From assembly GCF_988243305.1 (NCBI RefSeq), contig NZ_OZ547137.1: a DNA stretch of 64,000 nt; one strand, 5' to 3'. The notes beneath the pieces are model-generated. The model saw nothing but the letters and a program-made list of their open reading frames with translations, did no database searches and was not told the DNA's origin. Positions 52,909 through 54,897 of the stretch are shown in pieces; the stretch's first letter is position 1; every line of letters starts with the position of its first letter. The position numbers were made by a program, and so were the translations under genes. Source of the stretch: a plasmid.

Positions 52909-53259
52909 ATGAAAAAAATTAAGTTTGTTATCTTTTCTGGCATCTTGGGTATCAGCCTGAATGCCTTTGCGGGTGGTAGCGGTTGGAACGCAGATAATGT
53001 GGACCCGTCCCAATGTATAAAACTGTCTGGAGTACAGTATACTTATAACAGCGGTATCCCAGTATGTATGCAAGGCCTTAATGAAGGGAAAGTAAGGGGG
53101 GTGTCTGTCTCCGGGGTATTTTATTATAAGGACGGCACAACAAGCAACTTCAAAGGGGTTGTTACCCCCTCCACACCTGTAAATACGAACCAAGACATTA
53201 ACAAGACAAATAAGGTTGGAGTCCAAAAATATAGTGCTCTAACCGAATGGGTTAAATAA
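52909..53259 (+). CDS. aap: Dispersin (anti-aggregation protein)
   Basis: 116-aa secreted protein MKKIKFVIFSGILGISLNAFAGGSGWNADNVDPSQCIK...; low GC; upstream of aggR. Confidence 0.8.
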   Translation: MKKIKFVIFSGILGISLNAFAGGSGWNADNVDPSQCIKLSGVQYTYNSGIPVCMQGLNEGKVRGVSVSGVFYYKDGTTSNFKGVVTPSTPVNTNQDINKTNKVGVQKYSALTEWVK

Positions 53260-53272
53260 TATCGAGCTCTAG

Positions 53273-53569
53273 CTAAAATTTCAACTCTCCACGCTGGATT
53301 CCTATCCAGCGTTTTGGGAATGACATTTCTTGTGATTGATCCCACCCTCGTAATATGGACACAGGTCTAAGCGAGGTTCTAGTTTTCAAATTGTTCCGGA
53401 CTGAGACCACCAGGTGCCAGCGATTGTAATCACATTCGATATAATTAAACACTGTTGCCCGCATTATTTCCCGGCTGATAAAATGTTCTTCGTGGAGACA
53501 TTCCACTTTCAGCGAATGAAAGAACCTTTCCACGCAGGCATTATCGTAGCAGTATCCCTTGGCGCGCAT
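53273..53569 (-). pseudogene. IS3-like OrfB C-terminal fragment with diverged right end
   Basis: [46 protein letters not shown]; diverged IS3-type end at 53337-53376. Confidence 0.55.
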
Positions 53570-53830
53570 CCTGTATATTATTGGCGATATGCCAACATAC
53601 GGGTATCACCGTGTCTGGGCGATACTCAGGCGGCAGTCCCGAAATGAAGGACTACCGTTCGTGAATGCAAAGCGTGTTTACCGGATAATGAGCGAAAATA
53701 GTCTGTTGTTGTTACATGACAAACCATCACGACAGCAGCGGGAACATAAAGGCCGATATCGGTGAAGGAAAGCAACCAGCGTTGGTGTTCCGATGGCTTT
53801 GAGTTTGGTTGCGATGATAGCGAAAAACTG
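53559..53830 (+). pseudogene. IS2-like OrfB N-terminal fragment
   Basis: [31 protein letters not shown], continuing out of frame into ...[13 protein letters not shown]... Confidence 0.5.
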
Positions 53831-54099
53831 CGAGTTACGTTCTCCCTGGACTGTTGCGATCGTGAAGCTATAGACTGGGCTGCAATTAAGATACAACCCC
53901 TGTCTGGAAATAAGGGGGCAAGAACACGATAAATAATTGCTTATTGTAATTATAAGCGTAAAAATCATATCCTACATGACGATGTGGAAATTAATAAACG
54001 TATTTTATATGAGTTAAAAATTTATCTTTTTATTGATAAGAGTTAGGTCACTCTAACGCAGAGTTGCCTGATAAAGACATTTTTTCATGTGAGAATGAT

Positions 54100-54897
54100 A
54101 TGAAATTAAAACAAAATATCGAAAAAGAGATTATAAAAATTAACAATATCAGAATACATCAGTACACTGTACTATATACATCTAATTGTACAATCGATGT
54201 ATACACAAAAGAAGGAAGCAATACATATCTTAGAAATGAACTCATATTTCTTGAGAGAGGAATAAATATATCAGTAAGATTGCAAAAGAAGAAATCAACA
54301 GTAAATCCATTTATCGCAATCAGATTAAGCAGCGATACATTAAGACGCCTAAAGGATGCCCTGATGATAATATACGGAATATCAAAAATAGATGCTTGCA
54401 GTTGTCCGAATTGGTCAAAAGGAATAATTGTAGCTGATGCTGACGATTCTGTATTAGATACATTCAAGAGTATCGATCATAATGATGATTCAAGAATTAC
54501 TTCAGATTTGATATATCTTATATCAAAGATCGAAAACAACAGGAAAATTATAGAGTCAATTTATATATCGGCTGTAAGCTTCTTTTCCGATAAGGTCAGA
54601 AACACAATCGAGAAGGACTTATCAAAGAGATGGACTCTAGCTATTATTGCAGATGAATTTAATGTATCAGAGATAACAATAAGGAAAAGGCTTGAGTCAG
54701 AGTATATTACTTTTAACCAGATCCTTATGCAATCAAGAATGAGCAAAGCAGCATTGCTGTTGCTTGATAACTCATATCAGATATCACAGATATCTAATAT
54801 GATAGGATTTTCCAGTACATCATATTTCATTAGACTTTTTGTAAAACATTTTGGCATAACACCAAAACAATTCTTGACTTATTTTAAAAGCCAATGA
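54100..54897 (+). CDS. aggR: AggR, AraC-family virulence regulator
   Basis: 265 aa from MKLKQNIEKEIIKINN...; C-terminal AraC dual HTH; low GC. Confidence 0.88.
   Translation: MKLKQNIEKEIIKINNIRIHQYTVLYTSNCTIDVYTKEGSNTYLRNELIFLERGINISVRLQKKKSTVNPFIAIRLSSDTLRRLKDALMIIYGISKIDACSCPNWSKGIIVADADDSVLDTFKSIDHNDDSRITSDLIYLISKIENNRKIIESIYISAVSFFSDKVRNTIEKDLSKRWTLAIIADEFNVSEITIRKRLESEYITFNQILMQSRMSKAALLLLDNSYQISQISNMIGFSSTSYFIRLFVKHFGITPKQFLTYFKSQ

Follow-up and report, generated by a model that had tools for sequence, protein, structure and literature searches.

A probably inert, inherited insertion-sequence scar separates aap from aggR on a pAA-type virulence plasmid

Introduction

AggR is the master switch for virulence in enteroaggregative Escherichia coli (EAEC), and any change in the control region of aggR could alter how readily a strain becomes virulent. 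The primary promoter mapping for this gene is that of Morin et al. 2010, whose sites later papers reproduce. Promoter fragments of 149–153 bp representing the alleles of four strains are activated by AggR in lacZ fusions (PMC7781526), the AggR site of the 042 allele has been listed (PMC6392122, Table 1), and insertion sequence (IS) DNA located downstream of aggR reportedly affects the levels of its transcript (PMC8595720). Here we analyze the interval between aap, the gene for dispersin, and aggR in a 64,000-nt plasmid stretch (NZ_OZ547137.1, assembly GCF_988243305.1), hereafter the window, on which all coordinates are based. With a probability of about three in four, we take this interval to be an inherited scar that is inert, rather than a functional element.

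The window includes a typical pAA virulence-plasmid segment, comprising aatPABCD, aar, aap, aggR, and isoprenoid genes. Plasmids pAA2 of strain 042 and 55989p have the same gene order and the same four junctions in the scar, with overall identities of 95.4% (042) and 99.6% (55989p), and their promoter elements are those of the window apart from small allelic differences. The locus also resembles the one described by Prieto et al. 2021 (PMC8595720), since IS DNA flanking aggR is common to pAA plasmids and the window too has an IS1-derived fragment 3' of the gene. However, the IS DNA of that study is on the 3' side of aggR and has a phenotype on the transcript, whereas the scar described here is on the 5' side and is known from its sequence.

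Results

Both genes are encoded on the plus strand. The 116-codon open reading frame (ORF) of aap (52909–53259) has 97.7% nucleotide identity to aap of 042, and aggR (54100–54897) encodes an AraC/XylS-family regulator in 265 codons from its ATG, with Pfam matches to HTH_18 and HTH_AraC; a longer TTG-started ORF at 54064 does not represent the annotated start, which is the ATG at 54100. In plasmids 99.6–99.9% identical to the window across the aap–aggR stretch, the two products are annotated as 'dispersin Aap' and 'aggregative adherence transcriptional regulator AggR', the latter at 100% identity. The interval between the genes (53260–54099) is exactly 840 bp, matching the approximate distance given in a first-pass annotation of this DNA, which had described it as filled with two transposase fragments in opposite orientations. 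Alignment and blastx recovered both fragments, an IS3-like one on the minus strand and an IS2-group one on the plus strand, so that the point on which that description was said to stand or fall, alignment with IS3 or IS2, was borne out; nevertheless, IS material occupies 590 of the 840 bp, not the whole interval.

The first 77 bp (53260–53336) are native 3' flank of aap, and include on the plus strand a hairpin with a 9-bp stem (ACGCTGGAT-TCCT-ATCCAGCGT, 53291–53312) followed by 3–4 T, identical in the window, 55989p, 042, and C700-09. The RNA of 53255–53335 folds with -20.8 kcal/mol (z = -3.2), and the hairpin was not called by a consensus terminator scan, its T run being too short. Judging from its sequence, it is probably the aap terminator, and possibly a leaky one.

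The IS3-like remnant (53337–53562, minus strand), recognized by nucleotide alignment, blastx, and Pfam, consists of the right terminal repeat and the 3' end of orfB (InsF amino acids 218–288), and is truncated internally. Window positions 53572–53337 align with nt 1007–1255 of the K-12 IS3 at 86.7% identity over 249 columns; the alignment begins at the very last base of IS3 (nt 1255, window 53337) and stops at nt 1007. InsF amino acids 218–268 were matched at 90% and 275–288 at 93%, profile matches were obtained to Pfam rve_2/rve_3 and NCBIfam transpos_IS3, and the best match outside pAA plasmids was IS3H (89.6%). Compared with K-12 IS3A and Shigella IS3H, the remnant shares the right terminal repeat and about 70 last orfB codons, at 86.7–89.6% nucleotide and 90–93% amino acid identity, yet only around 19% of the element is left. 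The left end with the second terminal inverted repeat, orfA, the programmed-frameshift arrangement of orfA and orfB, and a complete DDE transposase are all missing, the remaining codons are interrupted, and the remnant has a frameshift and a 13-bp deletion. Its divergence from either intact IS3 copy found elsewhere in the window also exceeds 10%.

The second remnant derives from ISEc48, a member of the IS2 group of the IS3 family, whose reference sequence was taken from NZ_CP141990.1 with its PGAP annotation. Positions 53563–53885 (plus strand) are 95.4% identical to ISEc48 nt 584–907 vs 68.8% to IS2 nt 587–896, and their translation, frameshifted at 53756, matches OrfB of ISEc48 (amino acids 68–176) at 92–93% and InsD of IS2 (amino acids 53–161) at 57–79%, besides the NCBIfam profile 'IS2 transposase TnpB' (E = 9e-20). 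They are followed on the same strand by the last 41 bp of the element (53886–53926), identical at 41/41 positions to ISEc48 nt 1296–1336, including the right terminal repeat (...GGGGGCAAGAACA) and terminating in ...GCAAGAACA; the terminus at 53926 was set by the inverted repeats of a complete copy. Missing are nt 1–583, an internal 388 bp (nt 908–1295), and with them one of the two termini and an intact transposase. Hence the designation of this piece as an IS2-like orfB 5' fragment holds at the level of the group, but the nearest named element is ISEc48, and the copy is internally deleted and has retained its right terminus.

At the fusion point the interior of one element is joined to the interior of the other, and the junction is therefore a scar of deletion or illegitimate recombination, not the insertion of one IS into another. 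Neither remnant can transpose, because each has one end and neither has an intact transposase. A repeat search of the region returned short chance-level repeats only, with no duplication flanking the scar.

The four junctions, namely aap flank/IS3 end, the IS3/ISEc48 fusion, the ISEc48 internal deletion, and ISEc48 end/aggR upstream DNA, are identical in the window, 55989p (aggregative adherence fimbria, AAF, type AAF/III), pAA2 of 042 (AAF/II), and the pAA plasmid of C700-09. In PLSDB, aggR was found on 52 plasmids, 44 of which keep the ISEc48/aggR junction, and among 5,426 complete RefSeq genomes of E. coli, a collection that does not include 55989p, the gene was present in 56, always plasmid-borne, with the junction kept in 53. 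Moreover, the scar had already been annotated, as EC042_pAA053 ('pseudogene - transposase') in 042 and as 'IS3 family transposase' pseudogenes in RefSeq. It is thus the standard inherited arrangement of pAA plasmids, neither recent nor peculiar to this one, and the aap–aggR arrangement as a whole is ordinary and already annotated.

Within this common frame, lineages differ by small deletions, the window being without 13 bp present in 042, and 042 without 23, 9, and 15 bp present in the window. Indel events between the two cluster in the scar, with 6 in its 590 bp vs 2 in the 1,508 bp of flanking DNA (Fisher p = 0.008), and substitutions show no difference (3.1% vs 2.2%, p = 0.25). Several plasmids have received further elements, all located inside the IS3 remnant: an IS629-like element plus a group II intron (3.6 kb, with a 3-bp duplication, CAG, at 53418–20) in the pAA plasmids of O104:H4, an IS1 at 53438/46 in pK1516-3, and an IS903B near 53382 in CP093070 and CP136994. 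Such concentrated indels and tolerated insertions suggest that the scar drifts neutrally as spacer DNA. The fixed junctions, lineage-specific indels, and secondary insertions are handy markers for tracing lineages of pAA plasmids.

From the ISEc48 terminus to the aggR ATG there are 173 bp of native DNA (53927–54099, plus strand), in which the homology of scar-free plasmids of the pO86A1 type begins at 53932 and the GC content falls to 24–32%, vs 45–53% in the scar. This segment contains the known promoter. A pattern scan placed AggR-binding site I (AAAAATTTATC) at 54016–54026 and the -10 hexamer CACTCT at 54049–54054, both on the plus strand, and site I, the -10 and site II of four EAEC strains map to 53999–54118 (PMC7781526, Fig. 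S5; PMC6392122, Table 1). The spacing of 22 bp agrees with the architecture defined by Yasir et al. 2019, WWWWWWWTATC 21–23 bp upstream of the -10. The allele of the window is of the 17-2/E36 type, with an identical site I (PMC7781526, Fig. S5), differing from that of 042 (AAAAATATATC, CATTCT). AggR-dependent activity has been published for the same core sequence in 17-2/E36, in lacZ fusions of approximately 150 bp (PMC7781526).

Since 89 bp separate the ISEc48 end from site I, all three elements are in native DNA at least 89 bp downstream of it, and a 149–153-bp fragment containing the start codon falls short of 53926. No IS DNA, therefore, intrudes on the core promoter. The statement in the first-pass annotation that the aggR promoter region had been remodelled is unsupported as regards the promoter itself, the scar stopping 173 bases before the ATG. 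Its broader statement, that IS insertion and decay reshaped the DNA upstream of aggR, is sustained: the ISEc48 terminus is 173 bp before the ATG, and the homology of scar-free lineages, with which it had proposed a comparison, breaks there. The far-upstream DNA of aggR was replaced by IS events long ago, and with the experimentally defined control region intact, no regulatory variant is flagged.

The aap gene has an AggR-binding site of its own at 52764–52774 (TATTTTTTATC, plus strand), an exact match to WWWWWWWTATC with the same sequence as the characterized aap promoter (PMC6392122, Table 1). The aap and aggR genes remain independent units of AggR-dependent transcription, with an AggR site and a -10 apiece. 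A further exact match to the consensus, TAAATAATATC, overlaps the aap stop codon (53253–53263).

Discussion

The origin of the scar can be approached from the genes on both of its sides. The aar gene (51978–52178, minus strand) encodes an ANR-family anti-activator of AggR (NCBIfam ANR_neg_reg, E = 3.5e-18) and is annotated as aar in near-identical plasmids. Between the native DNA of its promoter and the native DNA upstream of aggR there is a 1,642-bp mosaic block (52285–53926), composed of a putative SPATE 5' fragment, the aap unit, and the IS3 and ISEc48 remnants. A 57-amino acid ORF between aar and aap (52310–52483, minus strand) has a weak match to the N-terminus of Peptidase_S6 (SPATE), with E = 2e-4, below the Pfam cut-off; it is probably the 5' fragment of a pet/sepA-like gene and would form the left part of the block.

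The eight PLSDB plasmids with aggR but without the junction are all of the pO86A1 type. Their aggR is 95.4% identical, and homology to the window is lost at 53932, five bases past the IS terminus. Upstream of that point they have 21 bp (TTTTTATTATTTGTTGGCAGC) and then 48 bp 85% identical to window 52237–52284 (positions 4931–4978 of L014, pO86A1), a relic of the aar promoter with an AggR site, approximately 200 bp upstream of aggR and truncated distally by another end of the IS2 group. In pAST81_1 (NZ_AP043642.1; pair region at 3565–4102 of L018), homologues of aggR (91% nucleotide identity) and of the ANR gene aar (92%) are divergent and 321 bp apart, without aap or IS DNA between them, while in the window this distance is 1,921 bp. 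The similarity to pAST81_1 takes in both homologues and, besides, the promoter of aar (92%) and the core promoter of aggR (91%): window 51962–52284 is 92.3% identical without gaps, and homology on the side of aar runs precisely to 52284 and resumes at 54007. A second aar copy, in CP056609.1, runs past 52284 with the same TGTTTATTATTTGT motif, so that three independent contexts (pAST81_1, the pO86A1-type aggR, and the CP056609.1 aar) continue past this position with T(G/T)TTTATTATTTGT... Neither form of the motif, T(G/T)TTTATTATTTGT or TGTTTATTATTTGT, was found anywhere in the window.

The simplest interpretation of these comparisons is that aar and aggR formerly stood back to back as a compact pair, into which the block 52285–53926 was inserted long ago. 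The fusion would be the product of a deletion between two formerly complete elements, an IS3 and an ISEc48. The block, carrying the SPATE gene fragment, the aap unit and the scar, would have entered between the divergent genes, then some 320 bp apart, and its right border would be the ISEc48 end; since that time the scar would have drifted neutrally as spacer. No positive evidence of a function emerged for the scar: an Rfam scan of 52000–55500 gave no RNA family at E ≤ 1, and a sigma-70 consensus scan of the region gave 9 sites vs 6.1 expected, none of them in the ISEc48 end or reading towards aggR from the scar. An outward hybrid promoter formed from the ISEc48 terminal repeat was considered and is unsupported, as there is no sigma-70 site there.

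Several points weigh against this interpretation. The direction of the rearrangement rests on three witness contexts and parsimony, with one fully intact compact pair (pAST81_1), and no further compact aar–aggR pair was found in PLSDB when queried with the pAST81_1 intergenic region at ≥80% query coverage. No IS terminus marks the left border at 52284/5, and a search for a target-site duplication gave none. Finally, the scar pseudogene of 042, EC042_pAA053, is mildly AggR-dependent in RNA-seq, with a log2 fold change of -1.65 in an aggR mutant; this shows transcription of the scar, and a little of it may read through towards aggR. As for the more distant aggR-like regulators of the enterotoxigenic E. 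coli (ETEC) plasmids pLAO6 and p600468_158, no annotated ANR gene lies beside them, and these loci are uninformative.

It is conceivable, though unlikely, that replacement of the far-upstream DNA by IS DNA of higher GC content changed the control of aggR. Sites for Fis or H-NS farther upstream, or the divergent promoter of aar close by, could have been removed, or the spreading of H-NS from the AT-rich aap side could have been limited; control of aggR by both proteins has been reported (PMC5902536, PMC12015436), and basal activity varies among aggR promoter alleles (PMC7781526). The geometry is compatible with such an effect, given that the IS terminus is just 89 bp upstream of site I, that GC content differs so sharply across it, and that the aar-type AggR site found roughly 200 bp upstream of the ATG in the outgroups has been displaced in the window. 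However, some 150 bp of native DNA suffice for AggR-dependent activation with four alleles, including the pO86A1-type allele E42 (PMC7781526), the scar gathers indels and accepts insertions of 0.8–3.6 kb in plasmids that keep aggR, including those of the O104:H4 outbreak lineage, and it contains no promoter-like site towards aggR beyond chance. pAST81_1 and the pO86A1-type plasmids are natural constructs on the question of whether the far-upstream DNA matters.

The reverse history, in which the order aar–aap–scar–aggR is ancestral and the compact pairs arose through deletion, would agree with the typical arrangement being by far the commonest and with the finding of a single intact compact pair. 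We regard it as improbable, because the approximately 20 bp common to the compact forms (T(G/T)TTTATTATTTGT...) are absent from the window and cannot be created by deletion; in addition, it is at an IS terminus that homology breaks off on the side of aggR, and the compact forms carry the most divergent aggR alleles (91% and 95%).

We likewise consider improbable a transcriptional bridge, by which a leaky aap terminator would let the very strong AggR-dependent aap promoter transcribe across the scar into aggR and provide a second path of positive feedback. The aap gene, the plus-strand ORFs of the scar, and aggR share one strand, the hairpin with its short U run went uncalled by the terminator scan, and Northern blots of aggR revealed transcripts longer than 1.3 kb (PMC8595720), but the authors attributed these to 3' extension, with support from walking reverse transcription PCR (PMC8595720). 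The RNA-seq data can be read both ways: EC042_pAA053 falls 3-fold in the aggR mutant, as a bridge would predict, and aap falls approximately 650-fold (log2 fold change of -9.36) in the same experiment, so that the drop from -9.36 to -1.65 implies that most transcripts stop. Furthermore, O104:H4 plasmids, pK1516-3, and CP093070 keep the locus despite large insertions in the path, and the AggR site that Yasir et al. proposed for pAA053 in 042 (AAAAATATC, within CCAAAAATATCG) is mutated in the window, where positions 53223–53239 read CCAAAAATATAG and the site itself AAAAATATA, the TATC core having become TATA. That low-level read-through from the aap promoter is a second feedback arm, created when the IS-bounded aap block entered the compact aar/aggR region, is still less probable; if true, plasmids with extra insertions in the scar, such as those of the O104:H4 type, would be without the arm.

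Three plasmids in which aap is unlinked to aggR (pO86A1, ETEC pTD225C4_83, and pF16EC0617-1) have a copy of ISEc48, in the same orientation, directly adjoining the DNA upstream of aap, at the equivalent of window 52422 or 52645, and pTD225C4_83 and pF16EC0617-1 also have the downstream IS3/ISEc48 fusion junctions. That the remnant, by keeping its right terminal repeat, would let aap move with an intact upstream ISEc48 as a composite transposon is very improbable, since, in spite of those same-orientation copies in three plasmids, 2/3 with the downstream remnant, and of a remnant terminus intact at 41/41 positions, the window holds no intact ISEc48 but relics only, no target-site duplication surrounds the block, whose flanks differ (...GCTATT on the left vs CGATAA... 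on the right), and in the aggR-unlinked plasmids downstream homology ends at varying internal points (53379, 53690, 53900) and not at the IS end.

Further observations concern other IS sequences of the region. Across different plasmids, ISEc48-like copies were seen upstream of aap at three positions (about 52398, 52422, and 52645), always in the same orientation; one of them is a full copy between aar and aap in pAA2 of 042 (3371–4684 of L002), which has no counterpart in the window. Repeated insertion or IS-adjacent deletions would account for this pattern. Beside aar there is a 64-bp relic of an IS2-group left end (51896–51959), 96% identical to ISEc48 nt 5–56 and not contiguous with the scar remnant; its tip is repeated in inverted form (TAGACTGG...CCAGTCTA), and the homology of aar to pAST81_1 starts right after it. 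A single transposed aar–aap unit extending from this left-end relic to the ISEc48 right end (51896...53926) was rejected, as the flanks differ and there is no target-site duplication.

On the other side of aggR, 100 bp 3' of the gene, a 134-amino acid ORF (54998–55402, plus strand) is a chimera of the N-terminus of IS1 InsA (Zn_ribbon_InsA and HTH_Tnp_IS1 domains) and a segment of an IS3-family orfA (HTH_Tnp_1), and within it positions 55181–55371 are 88% identical to ISEc48 nt 173–363. The two intact IS3 copies of the window are located at 39572–40826 and 46802–48056, each 99.9% identical to the K-12 IS3, and one of them sits inside an IS2 fragment, whose ends are at 39176–39429 and 40874–40924.

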